64,000 nt of DNA. It comes from Escherichia phage IME178. Location: the sequence record NC_104190.1. One strand, 5' to 3'. Both the position numbers and the translations under genes were made by a program. Shown here piece by piece: positions 20,258 to 57,756 of the stretch. The notes beneath the pieces were generated by a model that was not told the origin of the DNA, ran no database searches, and saw only the letters and a program-made list of their open reading frames with translations. The stretch's first letter is position 1. Every line of letters starts with the position of its first letter.

Positions 20258-21228
20258 ATGACTAATGTAAAAGACTTTATTAAACGCTGTCAAGAAGCAT
20301 ATTATCAAGGTATGTCTTTAATCTCTGACGAAGAATATGATCGTCTGATTAAAAGATTTCCATTAGAAGAAGAGATCGGGCCTAAGGGTGATATTCCACA
20401 TCTGTATCGTATGTATTCTTTACAGAAAGTTTATTATAATCGTGGAGATAAACCTCCGTTCAACCCGTTAGGTCAGGTAGAAACTGATAAGTTAGATGGT
20501 TGTGCGATTTCTCTGTTATATATTAATGGAGAATTTGTTCAAGCACTAACTCGTGGTAATGGTATTCTAGGGAATGATGTCACAAGCAACGTAAGATTGC
20601 TGAATATCCCTAAAAAGATTTCCCAAAAAGTACCTACTCAAATCACTGGTGAAGTTCTAATTACAAAAGAAGTAGAAAATAAACGTAACTTTGCCTCTGG
20701 TGCTATTAACCTCAAAGATAGCGATGATTTCGTACAACGTATTGGGGAAGGTGGTTTAATCTTCGTTGCATATGGTATCCAGTGTTCTGCTGAATCTGTA
20801 GGTATTACAGAAGCGTACTTAAAAGATATGCTCTGGCTGGAGAATGAGACTTCTTAACAGTTGTTAATGTGCGTTCCTTCTTTAAGTGGATTCCGACGGA
20901 TGGTAAAGTTGTTCGTATTAATGACAACAACAAATTCTTCCGTGAAGGCTGGACTAATAAATTTCCTCGTGGAGCATTCGCTATTAAAGAAGATGAAGAA
21001 GGCGAGATTACAACTCTTACTAAAGTTGAATGGCAGGTAGGGGCTTCTGGTAAAGTAACTCCAGTTGGTTATTTCGAATCGGTAATTATTGATGATGCTA
21101 CAATTGTTAAGGCGACTCTTAATAACGTTGATTATATTAACTCTCTTGATCTAGAGATCGGTTGCCAGATTCGAGTAATTCGTGCTGGTGGTGTAATCCC
21201 GTGCATAGTAGAGCGAGTATACGATTAA
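20258..21228 (+). CDS. lig: NAD-dependent DNA ligase, adenylation + OB-fold part (subunit A), frame-interrupted
   Basis: KxDG (DKLDG), [14 protein letters not shown]; OB-fold/motif IV segment [11 protein letters not shown]...[11 protein letters not shown] is in a different frame from 20869 (GTG); frame change lies in 20848..20854. Confidence 0.65.
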
Positions 21229-21280
21229 TATATGTAACCCTTTGCTACCCATCTACCATATAGGAATTATAAAGTGGTTA

Positions 21281-21309
21281 TTGACATTTTCGCCGCTTAG
21301 GTATATACT
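21281..21309 (+). promoter_or_regulatory. sigma70-type promoter
   Basis: TTGACA-17-TATACT. Confidence 0.5.
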
Positions 21310-21373
21310 ATTATCATTCAGTTGAGGGATAGAAAGTTATGGCGAGGGTAAGCAAAGTTAGTTAAAATTGTAG

Positions 21374-21402
21374 TTGCTAAATGCTTAAATACTTGCTATA
21401 AT
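21374..21402 (+). promoter_or_regulatory. T5-type early promoter
   Basis: TTGCTA-17-TATAAT plus conserved leader TTTATATAAATTGATAAGGAAG. Confidence 0.55.
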
Positions 21403-21429
21403 ATTTATATAAATTGATAAGGAAGAAAT

Positions 21430-22203
21430 TTGATGAAAATCGAAATTCCAACACAATGTCCCTCTTGTGGTTCTAAGCTAGATCTTGTCAATGGACAATT
21501 ATTCTGTCGTAATAAGTCCAACTGTCCAGCGCAATCAAGTAAGTTAATTGAGAACTTCTGTACAAAAATGAAGTTAAAGGGCTTTGGTCCAAAAACTATT
21601 GAGAAGCTGGAGCTGACGAAGATTTCAGAACTATTTTACCTAACCGAACAAGATTTGGTTAGAGCCGTGGGTAGCAAGGTTGCCGCTAAGTTAATTAGCG
21701 AATTAAATACTAAAGTTCGCGGAGACATTGACTTTGGTTCAGTTCTCGGTTCTTTAGGAATCCCTCTAATAGGAGAGGTTGCAGCAAAGAAATTATCCCA
21801 AAATTGCAACAGCTTCCATGATGTGAAGGCTGACGGCAAGGCTGGAGAAAACTATAAAGCCTGGCTAAATTCCCCACAAGGCAAGGATGTTATCGAACTA
21901 CCGTGGAAATTCTCAACTGGTGCTAAAGCTAAAACCGTCGTTACTGATGATTTAGTTGCCCAGCCAAATGGAATCGCGGTATGTATTACCGGGTCTTTGC
22001 AAGACTTTGCAAATAGAACGGATGCAACAAACTATTTAGAAGGTCTAGGATATACGGTTAAGAAATCCGTTACCAAAGACGTCAAATACCTGATCTGTGA
22101 GGATGAATCAAAACGTTCTTCCTCATCTTATAAGAAAGCCGAAACGAATGGGATAGAAATCCTGTCGATTAAAGAACTATTGGAGAAAAATAATAATGTC
22201 TAA
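21430..22203 (+). CDS. lig: NAD-dependent DNA ligase, Zn-finger/HhH/BRCT part (subunit B)
   Basis: Cys4 zinc finger (CPSCGSKLDL...CRNKSNCPAQ), HhH-like segments, C-terminal BRCT-like region. Confidence 0.7.
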   Translation: MMKIEIPTQCPSCGSKLDLVNGQLFCRNKSNCPAQSSKLIENFCTKMKLKGFGPKTIEKLELTKISELFYLTEQDLVRAVGSKVAAKLISELNTKVRGDIDFGSVLGSLGIPLIGEVAAKKLSQNCNSFHDVKADGKAGENYKAWLNSPQGKDVIELPWKFSTGAKAKTVVTDDLVAQPNGIAVCITGSLQDFANRTDATNYLEGLGYTVKKSVTKDVKYLICEDESKRSSSSYKKAETNGIEILSIKELLEKNNNV

Positions 22204-23045: not shown

Positions 23046-24518
23046 ATGACCTTGTTTAACGTGCAAGCTGTAGTGTTGAAGATGCTTCTAGCTTCTGAAC
23101 AGAAGCAAATAGCATTGGAAACATTCTCAAAACTGCATAAAGATCATTTTAATGACGCTTTCTCCTCAATTTACCAAGCCGTCCAGAATTATTATAAAAA
23201 ATATAACACAATGCCGTCCATTGACGCACTGATGCTTGAAGCTAATAGGAACGCCCGCCTTTCTCAAGCTCTAGTCGTCTTAGCTAACACTCAAATTCCA
23301 GAAGTGAGCATGGAACAGGCACTTGAAGTCCTAGAGGCTGAATATACACAGGATTTATTCCTGAAGCTTCTAGAAACAGACGTGCTTCAAGATTTAACAA
23401 TGCTGGATCAGGGAGAAATTCTCAACCGAGTTGCCTCCCTTCACTTAAAATTAGAAGAGAAAGTAACGAATACTGGAAAAGTATTCAACGCAGATAACAT
23501 GCGTATTTTCCAGAGAGAAGAAGATACCAAACTGAACCTAATCGCTCTTGGTATTTGTAATGAGTTTGACGCTCAAATTGGTTTAGCTCGCACAGAAACG
23601 TTACTGCTTGGTGGTTGGCGTGGTACTGGTAAATCCATTATCTGTTCAAACATACAGGTTCAGCAATATTTGAATGGAGATATTGCTCCATACTTCTCAA
23701 TTGAGATGAAAGAACATGAAGTATTTAGACGTAATCTAGCCATGTTAGCTGGTGTATCCGCACTAGCAATGCGTAATAATACTCTAGAAGGTGCAGCTCT
23801 GCTGAGATTAGCCAGAACTAGAGCTAGAATGTTTAATGGCGGTGAAGAGCTTTTCGATAACTTCGTTAAACAGTACACAATGGCTAAGATGAGTGATTTC
23901 TACGATATGGAGAGTAAACTAATAGAAGGGTATGAACTACATACTCCTATGATTATCGTTTATGACCCTGAACTGTCCATTACAACAGTTGATGTAGAAT
24001 TAAATAAATTAGTTGCTAGATATGGTGATAAAGTTACAGTAGCTTTATTGGACTATATTAACCAAACCCGACTTCCAGACTCTAAAACCATTGATATGTA
24101 TGACTGGAAAGAACAGATGGTTGTTAGCTCGTCTTTCAAATCTATCTGCCAGAAACATAACGTGGCTGGCGTAGCTCCTTACCAGATCGATCAAGATGGT
24201 AGAACACGTATGTCAAAGGGTATTCTTGATTCCGCAGACATGGCTGCTAATCTTAATGCTGCAAAAGCTGATAATGGTCAAGGTGCTATTATGTTTGACT
24301 TCGTTAAGACTCGTTCTTCTGATAGCGTGAAGTTTATGCCTAAAATGAACTGGGAAACCTTGCGGATGGATAACACTACCAACCTAGCGATGGAAGATAT
24401 ATCTCAAATGGAAGCTGAGTTCGTTATCCCTATTGAGAAGGATAAGCCGGCTCAACCTAAACGTGCTAAGAAAGACAAAACCGAAAATTCAACAGGTGAA
24501 CAGGCCAGCGATATATGA
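23046..24518 (+). CDS. DnaB-like replicative helicase
   Basis: Walker A GGWRGTGKS, FSIEM (DnaB FSLEM-like), LDYINQTR; start set at ATG 23046 (RBS aaaggaga) instead of 22995. Confidence 0.7.
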   Translation: MTLFNVQAVVLKMLLASEQKQIALETFSKLHKDHFNDAFSSIYQAVQNYYKKYNTMPSIDALMLEANRNARLSQALVVLANTQIPEVSMEQALEVLEAEYTQDLFLKLLETDVLQDLTMLDQGEILNRVASLHLKLEEKVTNTGKVFNADNMRIFQREEDTKLNLIALGICNEFDAQIGLARTETLLLGGWRGTGKSIICSNIQVQQYLNGDIAPYFSIEMKEHEVFRRNLAMLAGVSALAMRNNTLEGAALLRLARTRARMFNGGEELFDNFVKQYTMAKMSDFYDMESKLIEGYELHTPMIIVYDPELSITTVDVELNKLVARYGDKVTVALLDYINQTRLPDSKTIDMYDWKEQMVVSSSFKSICQKHNVAGVAPYQIDQDGRTRMSKGILDSADMAANLNAAKADNGQGAIMFDFVKTRSSDSVKFMPKMNWETLRMDNTTNLAMEDISQMEAEFVIPIEKDKPAQPKRAKKDKTENSTGEQASDI

Positions 24519-25406
24519 GTAGAATAACAGAACTACTTGATCTGAAAGGCATTGAATATAAAGACACAGGTGGGGACATCCTCATCTGTTGTCTCAATCC
24601 AGATCATGACGATAAACACCCAAGTTTGCGTATTGATCCTGAAACAGGTATTATGCACTGCTTGAGTTGTGGCTTCGGTAAAGGTATACCGAGCATTTAC
24701 CATTATTTTAATGAGACTCAGTACCGACAGTCCCCAAGGCTATCGCAAGTACGTAAAAAGATTTCAGAGATTAGGAATGGGTCAACGAATCTTGCAATTC
24801 CTGAATCTGCTTACCTTTTCGAAGGTGATTTCCGAGGTATAAGTTCTAAGACCTTGAAGAAATATTTTGCTTTCCAACACCAAGCAGACTGGGAAGGCAG
24901 AATTGTATTCCCAATCACAGATGCTGTTGGACGCAATATCCTATTTTTGGGTCGTTCTATAAACAGTTCTGCCCCTCCTAAATACTTAGTAAAACCAAAA
25001 CAAGTTTCACCACCAATTTTTCCTGTACGATATAATACCCCAATTCTTATTCTAGTTGAAGGTATCTTTGATATGCTGAATCTAGAGGATAATGGTATAG
25101 ACTATGCTTCTTGTTGCTTCGGTACACATCAGTTTACTTCAGATAACATTGCAGATAAGTTTAGTCCGTATATTATTGCTGGTGTTAAAGTTGTTGTTAT
25201 CTTACTAGATAATGATGCTTCTGGTAATAAAGCTGCACAAGCACTGGCTAAGCTAATTCGTACAAAAAACGCGTTTAACACCTGTAGTTGCTAACTTTCT
25301 TCTGCCTGAAGGTAAAGACCCAGGTGACTTAAGTAAAGAAGAAATTGATATGTTAGCAAAACGTATTGAAATTTTAGTTGCTGAATCGCTTAAAGATTTG
25401 GTATAA
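24515..25406 (+). CDS. DnaG-type DNA primase (zinc finger + TOPRIM), frame-interrupted
   Basis: CHC2 zinc finger CCLNPDHDDKHPSLRID...HCLSCGFGKG; TOPRIM LLDNDASGNKAA; C-terminal VVANFLLPEGKDPGDL lies in +1 frame after A6 run 25263-25268. Confidence 0.7.
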
Positions 25407-25455
25407 TAGTCCTAAATAACTGAGGAGCTACTATGGAATATGTATATATATTTAT

Positions 25456-25764
25456 GTGGATGTTCCAGTGTATGATAGTATAACACACAAAGAGGTTAAA
25501 CTAGAGCGGTTTACAACACTGGAGTCCCTTAATAAACGAAAGAATTTCCATTTATTTGGTGATCCTAAATTACCTGCATCTTATATTTACTTTAAAGTAA
25601 AAGATACAGGTCAAGAGGTATACCTAACATATGATTGGGCTGTTGTAGAAAATACTGAGCAATCTATGAAAGCGCTAGATGCTTTTCTGCGTATAGATGA
25701 AGAATTTCGGGTACTAGAAAAGCAGCGCAATGAAATGCGTAAATTACTTCACACCTATAAATAG
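25456..25764 (+). CDS. hypothetical protein
   Basis: 102-aa ORF from GTG without RBS; a well-placed ATG 25433 (RBS tgaggag) is in another frame, so the start is uncertain. Confidence 0.4.
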   Translation: MDVPVYDSITHKEVKLERFTTLESLNKRKNFHLFGDPKLPASYIYFKVKDTGQEVYLTYDWAVVENTEQSMKALDAFLRIDEEFRVLEKQRNEMRKLLHTYK

Positions 25765-25767
25765 TAT

Positions 25768-25796
25768 TTGCTATTATCCCAATATTTTGATATAAT
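25768..25796 (+). promoter_or_regulatory. T5-type early promoter for DNA polymerase
   Basis: TTGCTA-17-TATAAT. Confidence 0.5.
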
Positions 25797-25857
25797 ATAT
25801 TGGTAAGTTAGAGAAGAAACACTGAAGTTATACTTACTTACCAAGAGGAGATTAAAT

Positions 25858-30276: not shown

Positions 30277-30348
30277 ATACACATAAATTTGAGAGAGAAA
30301 GTTTCGGATTGATAAGAAAGTCCGAAGCAGAAAAATAAAAAATTTTAG

Positions 30349-40928: not shown

Positions 40929-41350
40929 TATTTAGTTACCCCATCACTGATAAATACTTTACCCTCCATTATACGAAAGGAGCTAATTGCGGATCCTATA
41001 ACATCTCTAGTCATAATTATATCATAGTATCCTGCGAATCGCTGACGGGGGTTATATTTATCTCTATCTTTAGATGCTTTAGCTCCTATATTTTCTACAG
41101 ATTCTACCGGTAAACTTATAGCTACAGCCCCTTGAGCAGCATCAATAATACTAGTAGTAAAGGATGCTAATATCTCCGCATTCTCATCTAGGCTATTTTT
41201 TATTGTACCCCTTAGAGAATATCCGGTTAAATTAACAGGAGTATTTGTAGGCGGATAAGTAGTATCATCAACATCTAAGAATTGCATCATTAGACCATAG
41301 GGTACTTTCTCATCTATCACTAAGTCTATAACTCTATTTTCAGTACTCAT
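40928..41350 (-). CDS. tail protein (T5 p132 collar-like by size and position)
   Basis: 140 aa, position between fiber and baseplate genes; synteny only. Confidence 0.4.
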
Positions 41351-41354: not shown

Positions 41355-43428
41355 TTACCTTATGTGAATATATCCATTTACTAGATCTATCTTCATTTTG
41401 TACGCAGCTTCTGGATTTCCTGATAATGCTGCATTTCTATCATAAATAGTGTTAACCCCTATCTGGGATAAGAAAGCATTACCTGCCACTATTTTATCCG
41501 CAGTAATAGTGCCATTAACTACCATATTACCATGCAGTACCATGGCCGGGTTGATCCAACCATAGCCATTCCATTGTCTAGTAAATGCTGTCTGCGGAGC
41601 ACCACTATTAAATTGAGTTAGCACATCATATTTAACAGGAGGGGAGCCAAAGTTACTTTGGAAGAATGCATTAGCTTGGTTATCATCCCACCCGCCTAGC
41701 CCAGCTATTCCAACGGAATACATGCCAGGACCCCTTTGACCATCTGCACCAATCGTACCTTCAGTACCGCTCCATTGAACTACATCAGACCAGCTAGTAC
41801 CTTCTAATAGCTTATTAGTAACAGGATCTAGAGTACCAGTAGTAGCGTAGATATTCTGAGTCATATCAGTACGATTAGGAGGTGTTTTAGACCAACCAGG
41901 GGGTGGATAATCCTGTTCTAAGGGCTTAGCAGGTAGATTCTTACCTAGTTTGTAAACAAATACTGTTTGCTTACCCTGCATCCCAGTACCAATATCTACG
42001 TCTCCATTAGGAGTACCAATAACAACTCCACTAGAAATACGAAGAGTATCGCCATCATAGCGTATCCACTGAGTAGCATTACCTATATCTAACTTTGGCT
42101 TAGCAGAAGTGTTATCCATTCCCATCCAGATACCAGATTTTGTATCCCCCCAAGTTTTACCCTGAGTATATATTGCAGGGTTATCTTGGCCAGTTAGATT
42201 GGTCATTACAAAGTTAGCAGCATTGATAGTTTTAGTTATAACACTACCATCAACGTTAACTATCTTTTTAACCGGATCAAAAGATATTGGTGCTTTTCCT
42301 TCAGCATCTAGAAGACCTATATTAATAGCACCGGTAGCGGCATCAATTAAAAAATGTTTGTTTCCAAGTAGATCCATCTTTGATCTTACCCTTAATATAC
42401 GCATAGTTTACTTCAATACCCGTTTCATTAACAAAACTATTGTCAAGAGGAGTATCCTCATTTAGTGTAAAAGTCTGTACTGCAGAATCTGTAACATCTT
42501 GAGCATCTGGTCCCCATGCTATAGAAGAGACTTTAAATTTATGCTCAATTTTCCACGGAAACGATATAATAGTTGCCGCTTGTGCAGCACCTACGTTAAT
42601 TTTTTGAGCTTTAGTCCATCCAGTTTTTTTGAATTCTACTGAATCTATATAAGAAACAACAAATTCGCGAACGTTAGCGCCAGCTCCTCTATACCATTCC
42701 CATTGTACACGGAGATCATATCTTTCTTTACCATCAGCAATCCTTGCAGCTTTGAAAGTAATGTTGTTAGGAGCAGTAGGAGGTACAAAGTTATACTCTA
42801 CAGTAAGAACTTTGGAAAATTCAAAGTATCCAGAAGAGTCTACAGTTACACCATCTGGCATGGTAACTTGCCCAGATATGCGTACTTTGTAATCCCCAAC
42901 AGGAACACCCCCAAATCTAATAGTGGGAGATAGTGGACCTATATAATACTTTACCCACGGGCTATTTGAAGGTTGAGTACTTTTTAACTCAATAGTACAA
43001 TAACTAGCTTCTCCTGTAGTCTCTATAACTACTATAGGGGCACCTACACCCACATCTACTGGATCAGCCTCTGATCTAGCGGCAGTAATAGTAGGTTTTC
43101 TCTTAGTACTAAAGGTAGTTTTATTGGATAAGTTTATGCCAATTTTAGCCTCTAATAGCTCAGAGTCTATAATAGAGTCATAGAAAGCCCCTTGAACCTC
43201 ATAAGAAGTTGAAGGGGTTAGATTATTAATCATTACAAAGAAAGTATCTATACCGGTATAGTCACGTCTATCAATACTTTCTCCTAACTTTAACCAAAAG
43301 GATCTACCAATAACGTCATAATCAGTATATATAGAGTGCTGGACATACGCCATTGTATATCCAGTCATTATACTATTTAAGACCATTTTGGCTGGTGCAT
43401 TATTCGAAATCATTAAATGGATGCCCAC
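41355..43428 (-). CDS. baseplate/tail tip protein (T5 pb4-like), frame-interrupted
   Basis: two ORFs (361 + 349 aa) overlapping at 42343-42404 with an A6 run 42346-42351; combined size ~pb4; Ig/FnIII-like beta-rich sequence. Confidence 0.5.
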
Positions 43429-46262
43429 TCCACAGACTGTTCCCCCTCATCTCCTTCTGCTCTAATACGAAAATATAGTTTTCTATTGATCCCTAGAGCA
43501 TCACTGTTATGGAGAGCAAAATCTGCCTTATTATACATTAATAAATAGTCATAAGTATACTGATTTTCAATACGTACACTTCTTAGCATTCTATTCTGGG
43601 AGTCATAGATTTCCAGAGTATAGAATATACTTTCTATTATATCTTCTTCTGGTATCCTATCCCAAGCTAGTTTTACATCTGGGCCTACAAATTCAGTTAC
43701 ATCCCTGGAAGCCGTATTAGTTACCCTAAAATTAGATACTACACTTAGGTTTTTAGCAGAGTTAAGTTCTATAGATAATGTTACTGGAGAACTTCTTCTA
43801 CCATTTATATCCACAGCCCTTATTTCAAATATCGCTAAGCCTGCAGGCTCTCCAATTATCTCTTGGATCATGCGTTCATTGGGATTTGTTTCTAGTTGCT
43901 GCACAATATAAGGTTCAGCATGACCGGAATGCACGATAGAGTAATAAACTACGTTATTAGTTAAGCTTGGAAGCCAAGATAACTCACCATTTTTTCCTAT
44001 AGAACCAACTAAACCACCAGGTGTAGGGGTATATTTAAAATCCCTAGGAGGAAGAACGTTGTTACTAATATCTGGTATATCATTACCACTATTATCTACT
44101 TGATCAGAGTTGATAAATACATCTTCCCCATACTCCTGTAGGGTAACATTTATCTTTCCTTCCCTAGAGTTTTCGACTTCATCTACTAAAAAGTACTTCT
44201 TATCCCATCCGTAACGGTCGTAGGTAAATGCAATAGCATCGTTAGGCTCAATACCAATGAATTGATATGGTAAAGAAAATGAGAGGGTTCTAGAATACCT
44301 AGATTTCTTAAGTTCTCTGTCTGCAAAACTTCTAGCAGTATAGTAGTTAGTTATATTTGCAAAAGATAACTGTAATTTTTGTCTAAATTTTTATCTTGCT
44401 CTTTATATTTAGAGTTGTAAAAGGTAATAGAGTTAGTTTTCCAGCTAAGAGCTGGGTCTACGATGGATGCTTGAACTGAGTTGAATTTATTTCTACCAGT
44501 AGTATCTGATAGCTCTAAATCACCATAAGTATCCAGAAAATTAATCTCTAATGGAGTATTAGAATATTTTTCTACAGTAATCCTATATTGACCAGATAAG
44601 TTGTTAATAGCCCCACCGTAGGACTCTAGCAAACCTTGCACGTTTTTTAAATACTGATTCAGATGTGTCTAGAATAGTATTCATTTGTACTATTTGTCTA
44701 TTTTCTGCTAATGGATCAGTCCACCCAACATATCTCCAGTATGGCTGCCAGGATACTTGGTAAGATTCATCTATAATATCTAAGATAGCAGCTTCTTGTA
44801 CCAATTGTTGGAGAGGGAACTGATCAATAGCAATGTTTGCACCATACCTATCTGAAGTTAAGTAGTCAAGTGTTTGCCAAATACCATTTAAACTAGTACT
44901 ATTAGCAGTTACTCTACCATCAGAATGATAGATTTTTATCTTCTTACCCTGAATCTCAGCACTAACTTCTGGAATCTCAGTTCTATTTTCATTAATAGTA
45001 AAGCGTACTACCGCGTATGCAGTATCTAATAGTTTATATCTAGCATCCCAGTACTCAGGTCCATTGCCGTTCATATTTTGGAGATAGAACCCACGTTCCT
45101 TCGCTATATTTACTAATACTTCAGAAGCCGTTTGATCAGCTTTTCCATGATAAGTCCAAATCCTTATATCACCATTACCATCGTTATACTTATATTCCTG
45201 GCCATGCACAGAAGGACTACTAGAAGATATTCCTGATGCTATTCTTTGCATGGTGTCTCCGGCTACTTTTTTAACACCGAAACAGGTTCTAGCAGAACTA
45301 TCATTAGAGTCCATACAAATCATGGGGTTATCCCCAAAGGAAAAGTCAAGAAAACCGTCTATCTCTCCTTCAGCAAAAGCATATACTACATAAACTATAT
45401 TAGGATTGTGTAATTCCGTATCCGCAAAAATAGGTATTCCCGGTATTTTCTGTACACCATAAACTACTGGTATATACTTAGCAGCAAGGTTAAAATCTAT
45501 ATCTACTTCTTTAGTAACAGTCTCATAATACTTTTTAAGACTATAACTTCTAGATAGTCCAAATAGCTTTTTCTTAGACTTTAGCTTGTATCTTTCTTCC
45601 TGTACCTGATACTTTGCTAGAATAGAGATACTTTTATTGGCGTGAAAGAAACCGTAGTCTTCTTGGTACTCAAGTCTTTTAGCCCCGTTAGATGGAACTA
45701 ATTGTCCTGCTACAACCTCAAGCCCTCTATGAGAAGCATCATCAGTAAATCTACCGTTAACCCTATCAAAATCATAGAATTGGTTAGAACAATTCCAAGT
45801 AATTGTAGAGGTTCCAACCCCAGAAATACTAATGTTGTCCTTAATACCTCCACCAGTAATTCTCCCTCTAAAGTATAATAAAGGGCCATTTGTGTCTGGG
45901 TCTACAGGTAAAATAGAACCATCCTCTGTAATAATTGCTTGGTGGATTGATACTAGTCTATCTAAAAAGGACACCCCATTCTGCACTAGTTTCAGTACTT
46001 CATCCTGCGCTGTACCTGTAATAGTAAAAGATAGACTGCCAATAGATAAATCTCTGTTTTGTTTATGTGTGCTAATAGACTTAACTTTACCGGCCTGGTA
46101 CAAAATACCATTATATAGTACATCTCTAAAATAGTCAGTTAAGTAAATAAAAGCAGTACTAGTACCAGTAGAGCCGGGTAATTCTAGAGAAATTAGACTA
46201 GCAGTTTTTATTCTGCTATTATTTTTTAAGTAGTTTCTAGCACTATCTAATATTTTTTTCAT
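43413..46262 (-). CDS. baseplate hub protein (T5 pb3-like), frame-interrupted at two sites
   Basis: three co-linear reading-frame segments (552 aa, ~85 aa, ~327 aa) summing to ~960 aa, close to T5 pb3 size; C-terminal FnIII-like repeats. Confidence 0.5.
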
Positions 46263-46872
46263 AGACTTTCCCGTAAATTTAATGAGATGTTGGAGTATGT
46301 TCCGTTATTATTTAGTGTAGATCCAAAAGCATCACCATTCATGAGTTTTGTTCTAAATAGTATTCCATTAAATACTGGCTTCTCCGCTCCAGTAGTAGTT
46401 ATAAATAAATCAGGGTATAAGTTTATGGACCATGTATTACCTGATTTGTTAAATGATGTTATTTTATATACTTTTGGGTGGTTAGATAGCTTAAATAGAT
46501 CCCCTGGTTTTGGAGTACCTGTAAGAAGCCCTTTTGTATCCATAGTTATATTAGAACCCTTCTGTCCAGCAGGTATACTTACTAGACTAGTATTACCTCT
46601 AACTCTAAAAGCTTCGTATTGGGGTAATATAACGTCTATATAACCACCAGTCCTTTTGTATTCTAGAATAAAAGCATCTAGAACACTATATTCATCTGGA
46701 AATAATTCTGGATAAGAAATATTTATACCCCAGTATTGAGCAGATACCTTACTTCGTTAACTTTACCATTTGGTAACTCATCACGAATTACTGGGTCATT
46801 GTCAATCAGGTTAACACTTTCGAATCCTAAGCCTGAAAGTTCTGGATTCGTGTATGGGTCTGGTAATCTCAT
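46259..46872 (-). CDS. distal tail protein (T5 pb9-like), frame-interrupted
   Basis: ATG 46872 with RBS aaagaggagaaa; frame changes near the C4 run 46727-46730; the two segments sum to ~204 aa. Confidence 0.45.
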
Positions 46873-46981: not shown

Positions 46982-49900
46982 TTAAGAATTTCCTAATGTT
47001 TTCAGACTAGCACCGTTCTCATTCAGAGCTAATTCTACTGCGTCTCTTAGAGCACTACTATTACTAGAAGCAAATTCTCTGAAACTTGCAGCATCCATAG
47101 CACTAATATTCAGGATGATAGGTCTTCCTGAAGTTGAGTTAGATGAAGTTTTTAGCTCATCATTAGGTGTAGCTTTCATAGGAACCATAGGGGTAACTAC
47201 TTCTGTACCATGCTCACCCATTTGATAGCTAACCCCAGGGTACATATTACCACCCTCAGCACGAGGAACGAAGGAGTTAGCACCGCCTATACCTTTATCG
47301 CCTCGAATATAAGATAATTCACCTGCGTTAGCAGACATAGACACATCTATATTCTTTTGACGCTCTCCTAAGGTTAAGTAACTAGTTGTATCCGCTCCAG
47401 AATCTGCAATACTTGACATACCAGATGCAGAAGATGCTTGAGCAAGAGCTAAGGCACCTGCCAAACCTGCCGCCACCATCAAAGGAATAGAGAACGGGTA
47501 CGGTACAGCTGTCGCCGCTTGCATTACAGCTACTGCAGTTTGGATGATGATCTGCTTCTTAGCTGCGTCTTGTTGAATCTTCAACTTTTCAGCTTCTAGT
47601 TTCTTCAACTTAGCTTTAGATGCTTCTGATTTACCATCACGTTTCTGCTCTGCTGCAATAGCCTGATCAATTGCACTAACCTGTTGACTAGTACTATATT
47701 GAATCATAGAGGCCACAGTCTGCATACCTGCTGCGATCGTGGAAGTAGTGTCTAAAGACCCCATAGAGAACTGAATCATAGCATTGGTTAAATTACCCAT
47801 GCTTTGAGCTACAGCAGTTGCTTCGGAATTTAACTCAGATAGTTTAGAAATTGCCTGATCATAAGAAGCCATTCTATTTCCCATATCAGCAAAATCTTTA
47901 TCTTCTCCAGATAGTCCAGTTGTAGGAGTGTACACAGCACCTAAAGAAGATCCAACAGAAGCTTGCATCTCCGCATTTCTCTGTGCCCTTAAACCTGCTA
48001 GTTGTGCCCTAGTTTCAGCTATCTTTTTATTATATTCCGCTTGTGCCGCAGCATTACCTAATGTTTTCTGCTTTAAGTCTTCATATAATTTTAGCTGTTC
48101 CTGTAAGCGCTCCGCATTTCCCATTAATGGTTTAGCAGTAAATTGTCTTTGCTGTTCTTCCTCTCTACCAGCAGCCATTGAAGCAATCTGATCTTGGCGG
48201 AATTTCCAGATTTCACGTTCAATTTGGGCTTGAGCACGTCTAGACTGTTCCGCCTCTTTCTGTTTATCAGCTTGTTTTGTGTACCATTCGTACTTCTCTT
48301 TTTCAACGGTCAATTCAAGATTTAACTGTGCTAGACGATACTGAGTATCTGTCATAGTACGGTTATTTAAGAGGGCTATCTCACGATCTACACCCAGAAT
48401 TTTATCTGTGTAATCCTTAACCTTCTTCTGAGCCTCCATACCCTGATTGGTAAGTTTAAGTTTCTCCAGCTGAATTTTTTCAATTTCTTTCTCAACAGCT
48501 TTATTTCCCTGATTAGTTTGAAGTACACGGCGTAAAGCAGCTTCTTGCTCTTCTAACTGTTGGAGTTCTAAACGCCTACCGGCTTCCTGTGCCTTTTCTT
48601 TATCTTTAGTTTGATTGTATACGTCAGCTATCTTCTGTTGAACTGCTAACTGGTTCTTAGTCTCATTACCAGTTAGTTTAACGTACTCAGATAAGGCCTG
48701 AGACGCAGTTTTCATTTCAGACAGAGTATTGTAGCCTAGGTTAAGATTTTTAACATATTCATCAGCACTCTTACCAGTACCTAGAGATAGAGATTCTATG
48801 TTTTTTATAGCATCTGCTAAAGTAGCACTAGTTTTAGCAGCAGTATCTGTATTCTGAGCAACGTTCTGTATATCATTAGCTAAGTCACTAGCAGTTTTCT
48901 TAGTCTGATTGTACGCTTTCTGCTGCTCAGTTAGTCCTTTTAATACAGTAGAGTTAAAATCGTATACAGCGCCAGGATCTGTAGAATCTCTCTGTAGATT
49001 AATCTGTTTCTGAAACTGTGGATTAGCTTTTGCAGCAGCAGCTCCAGCAGCTTGATACGCTGATTTCCAAGCATTGAGGTTCTCTGTAGAATCCTCTACT
49101 TCCTTACCAAGTCTAGTTACTTGTAGACCCATAGCTGCAGTTTCTGCTACAAATTGCTTATTGGCCTCCGAAGCACCTGCTGCTGCAAGACCAATAGGAA
49201 TACCTTCGCCAACTTGACGTATAGCTAGTTTTGTATAGAAATCTGCTTGTTCCATTCGTTTATCGAACTCAGATTTTAGCTTATTACGCTTATCAAGAGA
49301 TTCCTTATACATATCTAGAGCTTTATTATAGCCTTCTTCAGAAGCAGCTAAACTTAAAGCAACAGCACCAACGTTGGTAGGGTCTATCTGTCTATTAGTT
49401 TTTTCTTGAGCTCTAGCTGCCTCCGCAGATATAGAAGCCTGAGATGTATAAAATACTGTATTGATAGCATCAATTACCGGCCCTAAATACTTAGCAGCAG
49501 CTTGTTGTATTTTTCTTAGTGCAGCATCTGCATTAGCAGCAAATTGCTCCCATGGAGTTGCACGTAGTACTTCATCTAGGTAGCCAAACCGCTTAGTAGA
49601 TTCAGCAATTACCGCGTTAGCGTATGCTTGTTGTTTCTGGAAAGTGGTAAGACTATTAACATTATATGTTATACCTGTGTTTGCAGCATTTAACTGTTTA
49701 ACATAATCAGCATATGCGTCATTAAGACGGATGGTGACACCAAGTTCATCCAGAAGTTCGATTTCTTGTTTAGATACGCCCTTAATTACACGGTTAAGTG
49801 CATCAGTCATATCAACACCAAGAACAGCAGCAGCACGACGAGCTACTAAACCAAATTTATTAAGTTGTTCGGCATCAAATCCATAAGCAGATGCTGAAGA

Positions 49901-50662
49901 TGCCTGTCTCATTGCTTCCTCAAAAGAAATAGCATATCCAGCAGCTTCTTGTAGTGATCTAGCAAGGGTCTGAACAGGAGTACCTGTCTGAGTACCTACT
50001 ATAACACCAAATTTTTCTAGACGATTTAGCTGATCACCTAGTTTAAGTTGTTCAAATGCTGATTGCAAAACGAAGATGTTGGAAGCAAGAGCTGCGTACA
50101 TAATAGGTAAACTACCACCGATCTTAGCCATTGCCGCAAAATCACGAGTTGCACCACGTGCTGAACCAGAAGTATTACCAATAGCTCTAGAAGCTCTACC
50201 AGCGGCACCAGCAGTATCATTAAAACCCCTAGCTGTGCCACCTAATGCTCTATTAGTATCATATAATCTATCCTGGACTTTTTCTGTTGCAGCTGCAACA
50301 TCATTACCCATTGTTTTAACAGATCTAGAAACTCCATCGAATCCAATTTCTAGTTTATCTGTTACTTCAATAAGCTGGATAGCCAGGTAGTCTAGCTTAT
50401 CACCAATACCATCAATGGATTTAGTGATACCAGCCATACCCCTACTAGCTTGCATTTTAGTAAGACTTTTCGCTGCTCTGTCTGCTGCCCTCTCAATGGA
50501 ATAAAGAGTTCTGGGCATTTTACCTAACTGCTCATTTGTCAGTTCGGAAGCAGCAGCAGCATTTTCCAACGCATCAGATACGTTTTCAATAGACTTTGCA
50601 GTACGAGTTGCCCCCTTCTGTTTAACGTCTATTAGTAATTCTCGTATTAGCTTATCAGTCAT
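46982..50662 (-). CDS. tail tape measure protein (T5 pb2-like)
   Basis: 1226 aa, long coiled-coil-rich sequence with hydrophobic segment near C-terminus; size and position. Confidence 0.85.
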   Translation of the reverse strand: MTDKLIRELLIDVKQKGATRTAKSIENVSDALENAAAASELTNEQLGKMPRTLYSIERAADRAAKSLTKMQASRGMAGITKSIDGIGDKLDYLAIQLIEVTDKLEIGFDGVSRSVKTMGNDVAAATEKVQDRLYDTNRALGGTARGFNDTAGAAGRASRAIGNTSGSARGATRDFAAMAKIGGSLPIMYAALASNIFVLQSAFEQLKLGDQLNRLEKFGVIVGTQTGTPVQTLARSLQEAAGYAISFEEAMRQASSASAYGFDAEQLNKFGLVARRAAAVLGVDMTDALNRVIKGVSKQEIELLDELGVTIRLNDAYADYVKQLNAANTGITYNVNSLTTFQKQQAYANAVIAESTKRFGYLDEVLRATPWEQFAANADAALRKIQQAAAKYLGPVIDAINTVFYTSQASISAEAARAQEKTNRQIDPTNVGAVALSLAASEEGYNKALDMYKESLDKRNKLKSEFDKRMEQADFYTKLAIRQVGEGIPIGLAAAGASEANKQFVAETAAMGLQVTRLGKEVEDSTENLNAWKSAYQAAGAAAAKANPQFQKQINLQRDSTDPGAVYDFNSTVLKGLTEQQKAYNQTKKTASDLANDIQNVAQNTDTAAKTSATLADAIKNIESLSLGTGKSADEYVKNLNLGYNTLSEMKTASQALSEYVKLTGNETKNQLAVQQKIADVYNQTKDKEKAQEAGRRLELQQLEEQEAALRRVLQTNQGNKAVEKEIEKIQLEKLKLTNQGMEAQKKVKDYTDKILGVDREIALLNNRTMTDTQYRLAQLNLELTVEKEKYEWYTKQADKQKEAEQSRRAQAQIEREIWKFRQDQIASMAAGREEEQQRQFTAKPLMGNAERLQEQLKLYEDLKQKTLGNAAAQAEYNKKIAETRAQLAGLRAQRNAEMQASVGSSLGAVYTPTTGLSGEDKDFADMGNRMASYDQAISKLSELNSEATAVAQSMGNLTNAMIQFSMGSLDTTSTIAAGMQTVASMIQYSTSQQVSAIDQAIAAEQKRDGKSEASKAKLKKLEAEKLKIQQDAAKKQIIIQTAVAVMQAATAVPYPFSIPLMVAAGLAGALALAQASSASGMSSIADSGADTTSYLTLGERQKNIDVSMSANAGELSYIRGDKGIGGANSFVPRAEGGNMYPGVSYQMGEHGTEVVTPMVPMKATPNDELKTSSNSTSGRPIILNISAMDAASFREFASSNSSALRDAVELALNENGASLKTLGNS

Positions 50663-50675: not shown

Positions 50676-50709
50676 CAATAAAAAGGCTCTGGGCAAATCA
50701 CCCAGAGCC
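50676..50709 (-). terminator. terminator-like hairpin immediately upstream of tape measure start
   Basis: ggctctggg-caaatca-cccagagcc then TTTTTATTGGGAAAAATAAAAC-ATG on minus strand. Confidence 0.5.
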
Positions 50710-51174: not shown

Positions 51175-51579
51175 TTACGCTTTTGAGCTACGAAAAGTGT
51201 CTAAGTGGAACACTGTCTGGTTGATCCAAGAATCAAACGCAGCAGAGTTCTGCATGAGCATTACAGCATTGTCGCGGCTAAAAGGAACTTCAGTAGCAGG
51301 ATCAGCATCTGTTTCAATCAGCATCAGTTTTTCAACGTCACCTACAGTCAAACCAGTCCAACCTTTAATAGCTGCGTCAACAAATGCTTCAATGAACTTA
51401 TCATCATCCTGGACTTGCATCAGCGTACCATTAACCCATTCATCACGTTTAGCAGAAGAAATAACACGTTTAGAGGTAGCACGAGACATATAGTTAAGTT
51501 CTAGTTTAAAGTTCGGCATACCTGGGTAGGAAAGAGTAATAGTACGAGTATCAAGAGTAATATCTTTTAAATTAATCAT
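51175..51579 (-). CDS. hypothetical tail-associated protein
   Basis: 134-aa ORF, co-oriented; ATGA overlap with upstream gene. Confidence 0.4.
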   Translation of the reverse strand: MINLKDITLDTRTITLSYPGMPNFKLELNYMSRATSKRVISSAKRDEWVNGTLMQVQDDDKFIEAFVDAAIKGWTGLTVGDVEKLMLIETDADPATEVPFSRDNAVMLMQNSAAFDSWINQTVFHLDTFRSSKA

Positions 51580-52476
51580 TTTTTAATTTCTCCAAAGAAA
51601 TCTATTCTCACTGGGTCTGAAGAAGCAGTAGGTATAATATCCCACTCAACTCTATACACATCTGAGAGATCTAGGCGTTTTGTAATACGTGCTGAAGGAA
51701 AATCTATAGAAATATTATTATTTCTTATATTTAAAGGTACATCTGTCTCCGGTTCGATATTGTAAACCATATCTCCTGCAAAACGTTTTTAAGTAATATA
51801 GAGAAATGGTTGCCGAAGCATTCATTTCATTTACATAAGCTCTTTTATTATTATAAATTTTATTTATATCAAAAACACTCTTATCTTCTCTCCAAGAGCA
51901 CTGCTGCTGGAAAGATAAGGAGGCAGAGATAAGACCGGGTAAGATGCTACCATTAGTAGAAGCTATTACTGGGCTATAAGACATTACTTCACCCTGTATA
52001 ATAGAAGCTGCTTCTCTATAGGTAGATACTTCTGAGAATTTCCCAGACTCAATACCAACATTAAGAATTGGTATGTTCTTATCTAAAGAAAAATCTACCG
52101 TAGATACATAACAGTTTTCAAAATATACACAGTTACTATCTTTGTTTACTATATAGATATTGAATATAATAGGTTCAATATTACTACTATATAGTGGGAG
52201 TAAGAAAGTATTACCTTTTCTATCAAAACCTAACCATTCAAAGAAGTTAGCCTCTGTAAGAGTATTACTGAAATTTACGGCTAGAGAGATAGAAGAGGGG
52301 GTTTGAGCATTTATAATAGAGTCTGCATAGTTAGTTCTACGATGAACAGTCCTACGAAGAGTCTTGAATTCCTCGTAGGAAGTCTGTATATCATAGTTTG
52401 ATAGGGCATCAAAATGAAATGCCCTACCATCATACTCAACTATAACTTTTGACTCTCTCATTAGAGAGTAGTACAT
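51576..52476 (-). CDS. tail protein, frame-interrupted
   Basis: 252-aa ORF has an implausible C-terminal tail; downstream frame (64-aa ORF 51576..51770) gives a sensible continuation; switch at A5/T4 run near 51780-51795. Confidence 0.4.
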
Positions 52477-54390: not shown

Positions 54391-55159
54391 TTAGGTTCCT
54401 TGATTAACCTTGATTTTATATCTAGAGTGAATCAGGTCTCTTGCAGCTTTTGCTATAGCCTCACCAATAAGTTTTTGGGGGTTTCTAGCGCCTGGGTAAG
54501 GTCGTAGAGATAATCTTTGATATGTAGATACTGCTGGATTAAATACAGAATATGGACGTACCATATAATTATACGTCACGTTTAATTCAGGAGCACCTTT
54601 ACTAGTCTCTGCATCTCTAAGCATAACATCCTTAATTTTCAGAGAATTTGCAAACCTGCCAGTTCTAAATTTTAATGGCGCTCCTGTCTTTTTCATATCC
54701 TTTATTAAGTACTCTTTAGCAACTATCTCTAATATAACCTTCATATTGCTATTTGATACAAAACGTCCGGAAGCACCTGTTACTGCACCTGAGTATCCAT
54801 CCTCTACGTCTCTAGGATCCCCAAAGTTTACCTGTACTCTGCCTGTAGAACGTTTTTTTACCTACAGAGGATTTTTTACCCGCGGTTGCTTGTATTAAGT
54901 TCTCTAGAGCACCTAAATCCCCCGAAAGATCTAAACTAGAGGATACTGCTTTTAGTATAGAGGCTGTTCTAACATCAAGAAGATCTTGTGATACGGGTTT
55001 TGAAAACTTAAAAGATACTTGAGCAACAGTACCATCTCTGGTAGGATCTTTTAACCCTGTCTCAACAGAATACACAACAGTATTCTTATTATTTTCAGAT
55101 CGTCCTGCAGTATCTAGCTGCTCTTTAATAATTTGTTTAGCTAGATCGGAAAGAGACAT
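54391..55159 (-). CDS. head-tail joining protein, frame-interrupted
   Basis: 115-aa and 117-aa ORFs are co-linear; frame change at T7 run 54823-54829. Confidence 0.4.
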
Positions 55160-55671: not shown

Positions 55672-55680
55672 TTATTTTTC

Positions 55681-55711
55681 CCAATAAAAAAGGAGAGCCG
55701 AAGCTCTCCTT
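55681..55711 (-). terminator. strong rho-independent terminator after major capsid gene
   Basis: 9-bp stem aaggagagc / gctctcctt, loop cgaa, then TTTTTATTGG on minus strand. Confidence 0.6.
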
Positions 55712-55730
55712 ATCGGCTGAAAAGCCTGTA

Positions 55731-57107
55731 TTAAGATGCAGCGTAAGTACCGGATACAACGCCGTTATTAAAGTAACGTTGCAGGTTAACACGCTGGGTA
55801 ACGTAGTACGCGTCACGCTGTTTACCAGCTTGGCGCTCACGTTCAACAGTAACAGCACGCTGACGCGGCATTACAAAGTTATCTTTATAAACGATAACTG
55901 CGAATTCTGCGGAAGCAGCTTTAGCAGGGAAGTATTCAGAAACTACAACTGGCAGACCATAAATACGACCAACCTGACCTTGCAGTTTAACAGCATCGTT
56001 ACCAACCTGTGCAACATCCTGCCATTCTTCATCTTCCAGCAGATCGTAATAAGCATCCATAGATACGATCAGTACTAGTTTGCTAAGTTTCAGACCATGA
56101 CGGCCCAGTTTACGACGCAGTTTAGAAATAGTTTTAGCAGTTACTAATACAGAACCATCAGCTTTAGCCTCGGTAACAACCTTAGCACTATCTTCGCTAG
56201 CAAGGGTCAGCAGACCTTTCGGCTTACCAGAACCATCACCAGTCATGAAAGCTTCTTCGATAGAAACAGCGTGTGCTTCAATCAGGCGTTTACGCAGCAG
56301 AGGCAGCAGAGAGAAGATTGCATCTTCTTCAGTTTCATCAGTAATGAAGGACTTAGCAGCTAATTTGTAAGTACTGAAATGAATTTCAGTCAGAGCACCT
56401 TTAACTTCTTCACCAGTAGTTGCATCAGTACCATAAGTAGAAGCAGCAACCCAAGTAGCTTTACCAGCATCTGGTTCAACTAGCATAGTAAGAATCTTAC
56501 TAGACATCGGCAATTCTTCGAACAGTGCACCAACTACCAGCTCTTTCTGCAGATCACGAATGATACGCTGGGAGAAAATAGTTTCATAGTTTTCACTAGA
56601 AACCTGAACTGAAGAAGAGGTGTTTACAGCTTTAAGGTGATTCTGACCATGTTCAGTTTCGAATACGCCTTTTTCCATTACATAAGATAGCAGAACTAGT
56701 TTTTCAACTTCATCTTCGAAAGCTTCCTGAGTACCATACAGTGCTTTAGCTACGCTATCACCGACGAAGGAACGTCCTTCACGAGCTGCCAGTAGAGATT
56801 TGATTTCGTCCTGAAGACCAACAATAGTTTCCTGTTGTTTTTCTACAGTCTGTGCAAACAGTTCTGCGCTCTTTTTAGATTTTTCATCCAGGGATTTAAC
56901 CAGTTCCAGAGCTTCTTCTAGCTTCTGACGATCTTCGCCAACTGCTTTAGAAACCAGATCATTCATACGAGCCAGTTCTTTTTCTTCCTGCTCTTTACGC
57001 ATACGTTCAGCTTCAGCAGCTTTCTGAGCAGCGGTCAGACCTTCCAGAGATTTAGCCAGATCACCCAGACCAAGTTCTTCTTTCAGCTTATTAATATCAA
57101 TAGTCAT
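55731..57107 (-). CDS. major capsid protein precursor (T5 pb8-like, HK97 fold with N-terminal delta domain)
   Basis: 458 aa (the size I recall for pb8); coiled-coil N-terminal ~150 aa then capsid body; optimal codon usage. Confidence 0.85.
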   Translation of the reverse strand: MTIDINKLKEELGLGDLAKSLEGLTAAQKAAEAERMRKEQEEKELARMNDLVSKAVGEDRQKLEEALELVKSLDEKSKKSAELFAQTVEKQQETIVGLQDEIKSLLAAREGRSFVGDSVAKALYGTQEAFEDEVEKLVLLSYVMEKGVFETEHGQNHLKAVNTSSSVQVSSENYETIFSQRIIRDLQKELVVGALFEELPMSSKILTMLVEPDAGKATWVAASTYGTDATTGEEVKGALTEIHFSTYKLAAKSFITDETEEDAIFSLLPLLRKRLIEAHAVSIEEAFMTGDGSGKPKGLLTLASEDSAKVVTEAKADGSVLVTAKTISKLRRKLGRHGLKLSKLVLIVSMDAYYDLLEDEEWQDVAQVGNDAVKLQGQVGRIYGLPVVVSEYFPAKAASAEFAVIVYKDNFVMPRQRAVTVERERQAGKQRDAYYVTQRVNLQRYFNNGVVSGTYAAS

Positions 57108-57124
57108 TTTTAAATAATTCTCCG

Positions 57125-57756
57125 TTATTCTTTAACGTAGCCTAAAGCTATCGCAAGTTTTTCTAGTTCAGAAAGATTACGTTCTTGAGCTGGGACAGCT
57201 TTAGAACTTATTGCAGTAAAAGATTTACGCCATTCAGTGTAATCATGACCATTCATGCTCTTAGCGAGATTGAATGTTGAGTCCTGATTACAAGGTACAG
57301 AAACTACCGAACTTCGTATAGTTCTAAATCTTTAATAATAAATATATCAGTAGCTTCATCCCACTCTGCATCTAGGCAGCGGAATCCGATACTAAAAGTT
57401 TTCAGTACACCGTTTCTAATTAGTGAAAAGATAGCCGGATCAGAACTTTCATAGATCTCGCATTCGATTTCGAGACCCATTTCAGTAGGGTTAAGATCAA
57501 TACACTTGCCGATTGGACGACGATGGTCGTGTCCGAAAAGAATAATCGGGTTTTTCATATAGTTAGCAAGTGCATTAGATGTTTTCCATGCCGAAGCAGG
57601 AATTACATCACCAGCACGATCTTTACTAATTGTATTAGCGAATCCACGGATCTTTACAACACCTTCTTTGGATTCGCTATCAATAGATTTAATATAAGCA
57701 TCTAAATGAACCGGTGCTGATTTTAACTTGTTATAGTCAATAGCAGCTTGTGTCAT
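57125..57756 (-). CDS. prohead protease (HK97/U35 family), frame-interrupted
   Basis: PIILFGHDHRRPIGK and LKTFSIGF (catalytic His/Ser context); 150-aa ORF stops at 57304 but a -1 frame continues ~57 codons to a stop 17 nt before capsid ATG; total ~208 aa. Confidence 0.6.

Follow-up and report, generated by a model that had tools for sequence, protein, structure and literature searches.

Single-base indels that break eight conserved genes in a T5-like phage sequence are very probably errors of the deposited consensus

Nine single-base indels disrupt the reading frames of eight conserved replication and virion genes in the 64,000-nucleotide stretch of Escherichia phage IME178 (NC_104190.1) analysed here, referred to below as the window. 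The frame disruptions are very probably artefacts of the deposited consensus. We infer an origin in sequencing rather than in the phage, and this comparative reasoning does not amount to proof. In the phage itself, the ligA, primase, pb4, pb3, pb9, p140, p143 and protease genes are almost certainly intact.

Results

Nine frame switches in eight genes

The window is a segment of a Tequintavirus (T5-like) genome. It has hundreds of Tequintavirus matches, is approximately 95% identical to HMD-P3 across 94% of a 24-kb stretch, and its orthologs are collinear with T5-group genomes from the exonuclease to the terminase. Its pb9, p140 and p143 match T5-specific Pfam families. The initial annotation had reported that at least ten genes between 20845 and 57331 were frame-disrupted. 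A tblastn search with the HMD-P3 proteins confirmed the disruption and lowered the count, since it found nine frame switches and the private 1-bp breaks within that range fall in only eight genes. The remaining genes at 18.7–61.8 kb are intact. Each of the nine switches is a 1-bp indel relative to the concordant sequences of HMD-P3 and Lindwurm, and the nine comprise five insertions and four deletions. The affected genes and their lesions are as follows.

20258–21228, + strand: ligA (NAD-dependent DNA ligase subunit A); one base lost at 20849/20850 (GAGAAC or GAGGAC in relatives, GAGAC in the window); fragments are ORFs 20258–20857 and 20869–21228
24515–25406, + strand: DNA primase; one A added, A6 at 25264–25269 versus A5 in relatives; truncated ORF 24515–25294
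41355–43413, − strand: pb4 (central straight fibre); one base added, A6 (+ strand) at 42349–42354; A5 in the closest relatives, AAGAA in others
43413–46262, − strand: pb3 (baseplate hub); two lesions, pb3_a (+1; T6 at 44643–44648 versus T5 in relatives) and pb3_b (−1; T5 at 44376–44380 versus T6 in relatives)
46259–46872, − strand: pb9 (distal tail protein); one A lost, AA to A at 46750/46751; CCTTAACTT in relatives, CCTTACTT in the window
51576–52476, − strand: p140-like baseplate tube; one T added, T5 at 51786–51790 versus T4 in relatives
54391–55159, − strand: tail completion protein (T5 p143 family); one T added, T7 at 54853–54859 versus T6 in relatives
57125–57756, − strand: prohead protease (Peptidase_S78); one A lost, AAA to AA at 57310–57311; CCGAAACTT in relatives, CCGAACTT in the window

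The claim that the breaks lie mostly at homopolymer runs was borne out. A/T runs of at least 5 bases make up 1.9% of the sequence and hold six of the nine lesions (binomial P = 4e-9), and the other three (ligA, pb9 and protease) lie in runs of 2–3 bases. The individual runs that had been named fared less evenly. The A6 runs in primase (given as 25263–25268) and pb4 (42346–42351) exist, with coordinates that were off by 1 and 3, respectively. The run at 44643–44648 had been placed exactly but is T6 on the + strand. Positions 54823–54829, described as T7, read AAAGTTT, and the actual T7 is found 30 nt beyond them. The pb9 lesion, at 46750/51, does not coincide with the C4 run near 46727–46731.

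The window alleles are private

None of the nine window alleles was carried by any of the 29–35 aligned relatives per site (ligA, 0/29 loci; primase, 0/32; pb4, 0/35; pb3_a, 0/34; pb3_b, 0/35; pb9, 0/35; p140, 0/32; protease, 0/33), and the tail completion allele was likewise seen in none of its aligned loci. No split of any of the same eight genes was found among 33–62 loci in relatives. Orthologs sharing the split architecture, the observation that the initial annotation had set against its own reading, therefore did not turn up in this material. In a three-way control over approximately 47 kb, there were nine uncompensated coding 1-bp indels in the window, none in HMD-P3 and none in Lindwurm.

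The same picture was obtained from the databases. At each of the nine sites, between 42 and 438 GenBank phage records matched and none matched the window allele exactly; the matches listed at the top all differ by 1 nt in length. For pb9, 92 records match at 99.0% and the top matches listed differ by the lost base alone. For the protease, 85 records match at 99.0%, the top matches listed are longer by one base, and exact matches were 0 of 438. The window protease allele had no match in the metagenome and viral contig collections, whereas the repaired allele had 6 metagenome and 20 viral matches. The window pb9 allele had no match in the viral contig collection. Metagenome contigs have the ancestral length at every coding lesion that they span (protease, 6 of 6; tail completion, 3; p140, 1). 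An exact-sequence look-up found no record of the truncated primase, the pb3 N-fragment or the protease products, nor of the distinctive tail fibre and tape measure proteins of the window.

Repair and selection

A single edit per site gave gap-free proteins of exact ortholog length that were 94–100% identical to HMD-P3. Identities were 99.1% for LigA (323 aa), 98.6% for primase (296 aa), 94.2% for pb4 (685 aa), 98.2% for pb3 (949 aa), 100% for pb9 (204 aa), 97.7% for p140 (299 aa), 95.3% for the tail completion protein (255 aa) and 99.5% for the protease (210 aa). Every break sits inside a conserved family or domain match. LigA matches Pfam adenylation and OB domains, primase has zinc ribbon and Toprim domains with the lesion within Toprim, and pb9 matches the pb9 Pfam domains. 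The p140 and tail completion proteins match PF23779 (463 bits) and PF25747 (437 bits), and repaired pb3 matches PDB entries 7zhj and 8hqz over its full length. The 268 nt that separate the two pb3 lesions retain coding for the ancestral protein (97.8% identity), and the actual frame reaches a stop 37 nt past the first lesion (ORF 44604–46262).

Private codon changes in the window numbered 498 synonymous, 67 non-synonymous and 0 stops, compared with 498 and 96 (synonymous and non-synonymous) in HMD-P3 and 536 and 114 in Lindwurm. Constraint on the window is at least equal to that on these two relatives, and its private non-synonymous fraction is below both. Upstream of the breaks there were 105 synonymous and 12 non-synonymous changes; downstream, in the ancestral frame, there were 86 synonymous, 18 non-synonymous and 0 stops. 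The segments thrown out of frame keep their coding conservation when read in the ancestral frame, and the codon-change counts reveal neither relaxed selection nor accumulation of stops after the lesions, as would mark a decaying pseudogene. Substitutions are not elevated, and therefore the defect is specific to indels. Such an indel-specific defect is the expected output of homopolymer-prone platforms. The private alleles, the lack of any split in relatives and the conservation of the segments as coding support the earlier proposal of homopolymer indel errors.

Sequence context of the indels

The +1 events favour particular runs. All three ancestral CG-flanked A/T runs of at least 5 bases at 13.5–61.3 kb were extended, versus 2 of 148 other A/T runs of at least 5 bases (Fisher P = 1.8e-5). 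This preference looks like a systematic base-calling bias. The spread along the window is uneven: no errors fall in 1–13.4 kb or 57.4–64 kb, and four CG-flanked runs situated before 13.5 kb show no change. Explaining this unevenness requires an ad hoc assumption about coverage or quality in those regions. Outside coding sequence, the following small indels were found.

30337–30342, no strand: non-coding private +1, A6 versus A5 in relatives
14666: non-coding private +A
21234–21235: non-coding private +2 bp
50680–50684: non-coding −A in an A5 run; allele common to one relative

Private small indels number nine coding and three or four non-coding in a mostly coding genome. Such a distribution would fit an absence of selection against coding indels, but these are small numbers, and some of the non-coding ones may be real polymorphisms.

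Events outside the set

Two small early genes had been counted among the disrupted genes. They are probably ORF 25456–25764 and ORF 13477/13487–13903, and both involve 2-bp events, not 1-bp lesions like the nine above.

25443–25451, + strand: (TA)4 repeat, (TA)3 in most relatives
13477/13487–13903, + strand: small early ORF lacking 2 bp (‘CC’) at 13548, a private loss; beyond the range first described

The (TA)4 repeat throws ATG 25433, upstream of small ORF 25456–25764, out of frame. Because Salmonella phage Stp1 has the same allele (span 476 nt; 474 nt in the others), (TA)4 is probably a natural polymorphism outside the error set. The ‘CC’ missing at 13548 is present in HMD-P3 and Stp1, and its loss leaves the first 24 codons from ATG 13477 out of frame with ORF 13487–13903.

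Several other candidates were set aside. A frame change near 14838 in the ori-binding protein occurs in HMD-P3 alone, within an N-terminal extension that has probably been mis-annotated, and a 2-bp difference at 8286 is likewise peculiar to HMD-P3. The 1-bp gaps in pb4 at 42927–43105 (versus Lindwurm), in the tape measure gene at 47462–47504 and in pb5 at 61869–62246 are paired alignment artefacts in divergent stretches. The ligA break is not the natural LigA/LigB split, which is located at 21228/21430 and is common to all relatives. Nor is pb3 a naturally compensated +1/−1 double frameshift: the interval keeps the ancestral peptide, and the actual frame stops after 37 nt.

Discussion

The pattern can be accounted for if nine single-base indels entered through a sequencing or consensus step prone to such errors, whether flow-based or nanopore-type chemistry or an unpolished assembly. 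Most of these would be miscounted A/T homopolymers that were left uncorrected. The lesions at 2–3-base runs in ligA, pb9 and the protease gene are less typical of pure homopolymer miscounting, yet common for nanopore-type deletions. Of the three kinds of frameshift recognised in phage annotation, one is sequencing or assembly error (PMC8785237). The same class of artefact has been observed in phage assemblies, where a double frameshift cut one polymerase into three ORFs (PMC10438801). In that study of przondoviruses (HYPPA), 1-bp indels were likewise concentrated in homopolymers and were noticed because conserved genes such as those for the polymerase and tail fibre were split into two or three ORFs. 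They were fixed by short-read polishing or Sanger sequencing, and the double frameshift in one gene resembles pb3 here. The present case differs in that three of nine lesions lie in 2–3-base runs and in the unexplained +1 preference for CG-flanked A/T runs.

The consequences of such errors are practical. In this record, the calls for all eight conserved genes are incorrect. An automatic pipeline would annotate the ligase, primase, baseplate, tail and protease ORFs as truncated or duplicated, and they could then enter protein databases as contaminants or pass for novel split genes or recoding sites. Before it is used, the sequence needs polishing or a flag. Real lesions would mean a non-viable genome or an unprecedented multi-site recoding, and nothing here points that way.

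The indels might instead be real and very recent, so that the sequence represents a defective or non-viable genome. Such a sequence could come, for example, from a stock in which wild-type phage co-infects and complements defective genomes, or from an environmental sample containing a damaged genome. The lesions do stand in the sequence, A/T runs are natural hot spots for slippage, and the lack of relaxed selection would fit extremely recent events. We nevertheless consider this very unlikely, because it requires nine independent inactivating events in eight conserved replication or virion genes of a single genome, when neither of two close relatives shows any across the 47 kb compared and none occurs in the same genes at 33–62 loci. 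The T5 genes D16 and D17 are defined by conditional-lethal mutants. Their counterparts here are pb3 and pb4, which also argues against real lesions in these two genes. True decay would give private nonsense changes and a surplus of non-synonymous changes, and neither is present; it is implausible that eight defects would be complemented at consensus frequency. In a related version, the indels are real and the +1 preference for A(n)CG is a genuine mutational or slippage hot spot of the phage lineage, with expression rescued by slippage or complementation; we regard this as highly improbable. Ordinary length polymorphism within the T5 group does hold for some small events, namely (TA)4 at 25443–25451 shared with Stp1 and the A5 run at 50680–50684 shared with one relative; the HMD-P3 difference at 8286 also counts here. 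Those events, however, are non-coding or at the start of a small ORF, whereas the nine coding lesions occur in no other record and each destroys a conserved domain. As an account of the whole pattern, such polymorphism is exceedingly unlikely, and for the nine coding sites it is already refuted, since none of the relatives compared carries the alleles.

Some or all of the sites might also be decoded by programmed ribosomal frameshifting or transcriptional slippage, with full-length proteins still being made. The six A/T runs of 5–7 bases could permit low-frequency slippage of the RNA polymerase or the ribosome, and pb3_b has an in-frame A_AAT_TTA heptamer in the needed direction. No other X_XXY_YYZ heptamer among the nine sites scanned has the right orientation: A_AAA_AAC in primase slips in the wrong direction, and the other seven sites have no heptamer. 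The earlier caveat that programmed frameshifting might operate at single sites can thereby be narrowed. At pb3_b, a ribosome would terminate before the heptamer unless pb3_a were also recoded, given the stop 37 nt past the first lesion, so that pb3 needs two successive events. Neither a run nor a slippery motif is present at the junctions in ligA, pb9 and the protease gene, where the permissive overlaps are 7, 31 and 25 nt, respectively. Runs of 5–7 bases are shorter than those known to support efficient transcriptional slippage. Recoding would have to be +1 at five sites and −1 at four. The split architecture occurs in no relative, and conservation is a hallmark of programmed recoding. The sole recoding expected in siphovirus tail modules is that of the tail assembly chaperone, and none of the nine sites is located there (PMC8785237). 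Taken as a whole, recoding is extremely improbable, and sequencing or consensus error is the reading that we prefer.

The −1 frameshift of the lambda G/GT-type tail assembly chaperone and that of T7 gene 10A/10B likewise involve overlapping frames in phage structural genes with a short overlap. Those sites are conserved among relatives, rely on a defined slippery sequence and yield the extended protein as a minor product. In the window, by contrast, the nine sites are private, need both +1 and −1 shifts and mostly have no motif, and they would need approximately 100% recoding efficiency in conserved replication and virion genes. Pseudogenisation by frameshift also leaves truncated ORFs in once-intact genes, but here it would have come without relaxed constraint downstream of the breaks (86/18/0). 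A decaying genome would differ further from the window, which has no genome-wide surplus of private non-synonymous changes. The T5-group LigA/LigB split places one enzyme in two ORFs at the same locus (ligA at 20258–21228 and ligB at approximately 21430–22203). It is family-wide, with two annotated genes in T5, Lindwurm, AKFV33 and HMD-P3, whereas the break at 20849 is within ligA and occurs in the window alone. The spacer between ligA and ligB is approximately 200 nt and has annotated promoters in T5.

Single-base lesions in conserved genes

Every annotated protein of the T5-like Escherichia phage HMD-P3 was translated and searched against the window with tblastn. Eight of these proteins are spread over two or three frames of the window, and the remaining genes in 18.7-61.8 kb are all single-frame. 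DNA alignments to HMD-P3 and to Lindwurm, a second T5-like relative, resolved each frame junction to a 1-base indel, giving a total of nine lesions in eight genes:

20849/20850: deletion in ligase subunit A (ligA); multi-frame by tblastn
25264-25269: insertion in an A6 run of primase; multi-frame by tblastn
42349-42354: insertion in an A6 run of pb4; multi-frame by tblastn
44376-44380: deletion in a T5 run of pb3, minus strand (pb3_b); pb3 in three pieces by tblastn
44643-44648: insertion in a T6 run of pb3, minus strand (pb3_a)
46750/46751: deletion in pb9; multi-frame by tblastn
51786-51790: insertion in a T5 run of the p140-type baseplate tube protein; multi-frame by tblastn
54853-54859: insertion in a T7 run of the tail completion protein; multi-frame by tblastn
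57310-57311: deletion in the prohead protease; multi-frame by tblastn

The lesions comprise five insertions and four deletions, and six of the nine lie inside A/T runs of at least 5 bases; runs of this kind account for 1.9% of the bases analysed (binomial P=4e-9). The initial annotation described at least ten frame-disrupted genes in 20845-57331, mostly at homopolymer runs. The frame breaks are indeed in the sequence and the enrichment in runs is borne out, but the gene count falls to eight. Its run coordinates were displaced by 1 nt (primase), 3 nt (pb4) and 30 nt (T7 of the tail completion gene), and the C4 run that it tied to pb9 is separate from the actual pb9 lesion. Its two small early genes most likely correspond to two 2-bp events, which both shift frame, but one is common to another phage and the other falls outside the range described. 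At 25443-25451 the window has (TA)4 versus (TA)3, so that ORF 25456-25764 no longer shares a frame with its upstream ATG; (TA)4 is probably natural because Salmonella phage Stp1 has the same allele. The other event, loss of 'CC' at 13548 in ORF 13477/13487-13903, is private to the window.

One edit at each site, restoring the length found in relatives, gave proteins of exact ortholog length without gaps and 94.2-100% identical to those of HMD-P3. Pfam found NAD-ligase adenylation and OB domains in repaired ligA, zinc ribbon and Toprim domains in primase, three pb9 domains in pb9, Baseplate_Tube_p140 in the baseplate tube protein, T5_p143 in the tail completion protein and Peptidase_S78 in the prohead protease. 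Repaired pb3 matches two baseplate hub structures over residues 1-949, the one solved for T5 (7zhj) and another, 8hqz. Without exception, the breaks interrupt a region matched by a conserved family or domain. In T5, Lindwurm, AKFV33 and HMD-P3 the NAD-dependent ligase is annotated as ligA and ligB, approximately 200 nt apart, and the window is the same at 20258-22203; this family-wide split differs from the private lesion at 20849.

Comparison with relatives

Every small indel across approximately 47 kb was assigned to a lineage by comparing the window with HMD-P3 and Lindwurm together. The window had nine uncompensated coding 1-bp indels and the two relatives had none; their private 1-bp gaps were intergenic or were paired artefacts of divergent stretches. 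Alleles were also tabulated in T5-like contigs from a viral collection around pb3, primase and protease. The window's length allele was found in none of the 29-35 relatives spanning each site, and none of 33-62 loci had a split in the same eight genes. Thus, orthologs sharing the split architecture, which the initial annotation had set against an error, did not occur.

When the GenBank phage collection was queried with 101-nt sequences centred on all nine sites, 42-438 records matched per site and none at any site was an exact match to the window allele. Among the matches listed, the record span was off by exactly one base in every case. At the protease and pb9 sites, 85 and 92 records, respectively, were 99.0% identical, i.e. 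had one difference in 101 nt, and among the matches listed this difference was the missing base. Exact-pattern scans gave no match to the window's protease allele in the metagenome and viral collections or to its pb9 allele in the viral collection, and the repaired protease allele had 6 metagenome and 20 viral matches. The six metagenome contigs have the ancestral length at each coding lesion that they span (protease in 6/6, tail completion in three and p140 in one).

Table. Lineage-private substitutions counted from codon alignments of 32 genes
Window: 498 synonymous, 67 non-synonymous, 0 stops
HMD-P3: 498 synonymous, 96 non-synonymous, 0 stops
Lindwurm: 536 synonymous, 114 non-synonymous, 0 stops

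Upstream of the first lesion, the eight broken genes have 105 private synonymous and 12 private non-synonymous changes; downstream, the ancestral frame gives 86 synonymous and 18 non-synonymous changes with 0 stops. The downstream counts indicate that the nominally out-of-frame segments have evolved as coding sequence throughout the private history of the window lineage. Either the lesions arose extremely recently or they are not real. The window's substitution quality is normal, and therefore the defect is specific to indels.

Origin of the lesions

Programmed recoding would yield full-length proteins from the split genes. The required shift, frame overlap and canonical heptamers were determined for each junction. 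All junctions have permissive frame overlaps (7-68 nt), but the required shifts are mixed, +1 (or -2) at five sites and -1 (or +2) at four, and usable motifs are mostly lacking. At ligA, pb9 and protease the junction lacks both a run and a slippery motif, and the primase heptamer A_AAA_AAC has the wrong slip direction. Among the nine junctions a correctly oriented heptamer occurs at pb3_b only, where the ribosome would already have terminated at a stop 37 nt past the upstream pb3_a lesion. Taken with the absence of the split architecture from the relatives compared, the junction sequences exclude recoding as a general explanation and leave it very unlikely at any one site, which narrows the caveat in the initial annotation that a single site might be recoded. 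We consider the chance that recoding produces these proteins to be minute. Natural polymorphism is likewise highly improbable, and at the coding sites it is as good as refuted. That the lesions are real and very recent, in a genome that is defective, is improbable.

Very probably, all nine coding lesions are errors of the indel type from sequencing or consensus building. The earlier reading of homopolymer indel errors is supported, with counts and coordinates corrected, in that the lesions are private, enriched in runs and repaired by one edit each, and the broken genes show no decay. Their signature matches that documented for phage assemblies, in which frameshifts occurred at homopolymers in polymerase and tail fibre genes; one double frameshift gave three ORFs, and correction was by short-read polishing or Sanger sequencing (PMC10438801). 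In a phage annotation guide, sequencing or assembly error is among the three kinds of frameshift that annotators are told to weigh (PMC8785237). The frame breaks are present in the sequence, yet they are very probably not a biological feature; the record needs polishing, and its split ORFs should not be carried forward.

Four of the five coding +1 insertions (25264-25269, 44643-44648, 51786-51790 and 54853-54859) are in CG-flanked A/T runs, A(n)CG on the sense strand. Within 13.5-61.3 kb, 3/3 ancestral CG-flanked A/T runs of at least 5 bases were extended, compared with 2/148 other runs of at least 5 bases (Fisher P=1.8e-5), and 1/19 CG-flanked T4 runs was extended. None of the four CG-flanked runs in the first 13.5 kb (1511, 7091, 10989 and 11783) was affected. 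Private frameshift-type indels all fall within 13.5-57.3 kb, with none in 1-13.4 kb or 57.4-64 kb. Context-dependent, regionally uneven indels of this kind fit a systematic base-calling bias combined with coverage or quality differences, and the lesion-free ends of the window suggest regional coverage or quality differences, or a composite assembly.

Genome identity and mosaic regions

The window is a 64 kb segment of a Tequintavirus (T5-like phage) genome. By megablast it matched hundreds of T5-group records; HMD-P3 was closest, with 95.3% identity across 94% of window 20-44 kb, and the best matches in the structural region were at 93-96% identity. Its genes follow the order of T5, Lindwurm, AKFV33 and HMD-P3, running from the early exonuclease and genes of nucleotide metabolism, by way of replication genes, to the tail and head genes and terminase.

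Mosaic differences from HMD-P3 occur at 2444-4014 and 20170-20258. The thymidylate synthase is of a different type, just 30% identical to that of HMD-P3; an HNH endonuclease and an adjoining ORF are missing, as is the 62-aa ORF upstream of ligA. ORFs 13487-13903 and 13913-14302 are adjoining small tandem paralogs (approximately 32% identity), the first containing the 13548 deletion. Between primase and DNA polymerase, where the HMD-P3 spacer is only 62 nt, 25407-25857 holds approximately 390 bp with the small ORF 25456-25764 and a polymorphic (TA)n tract; this segment is a variable insert, since of the 437 phage records that match it just 49 reach a coverage of at least 80%.

Lateral tail fibre genes and the tape measure protein, at 36230-40928 and 46982-50662, are far more divergent than the remaining genome: the fibres share 49-91% protein identity with HMD-P3 and Lindwurm, and the tape measure protein is 62% identical to that of HMD-P3. 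Divergence of this kind is consistent with host-range module exchange. At 59916-59996, between a T5.153-like gene and the terminase large subunit, a 27-residue remnant matches the N-terminus of the 277-aa endonuclease T5.154 at 96% identity and resembles what a lost homing endonuclease gene would leave behind. The collar protein is a single 140-aa ORF in the window (40928-41350) and in most relatives. The T5 RefSeq record NC_005859 (locus L005, 20056-20480) annotates it as two ORFs, T5.135 and T5.136; because both fall in one window frame, the reference record may carry a similar frameshift.
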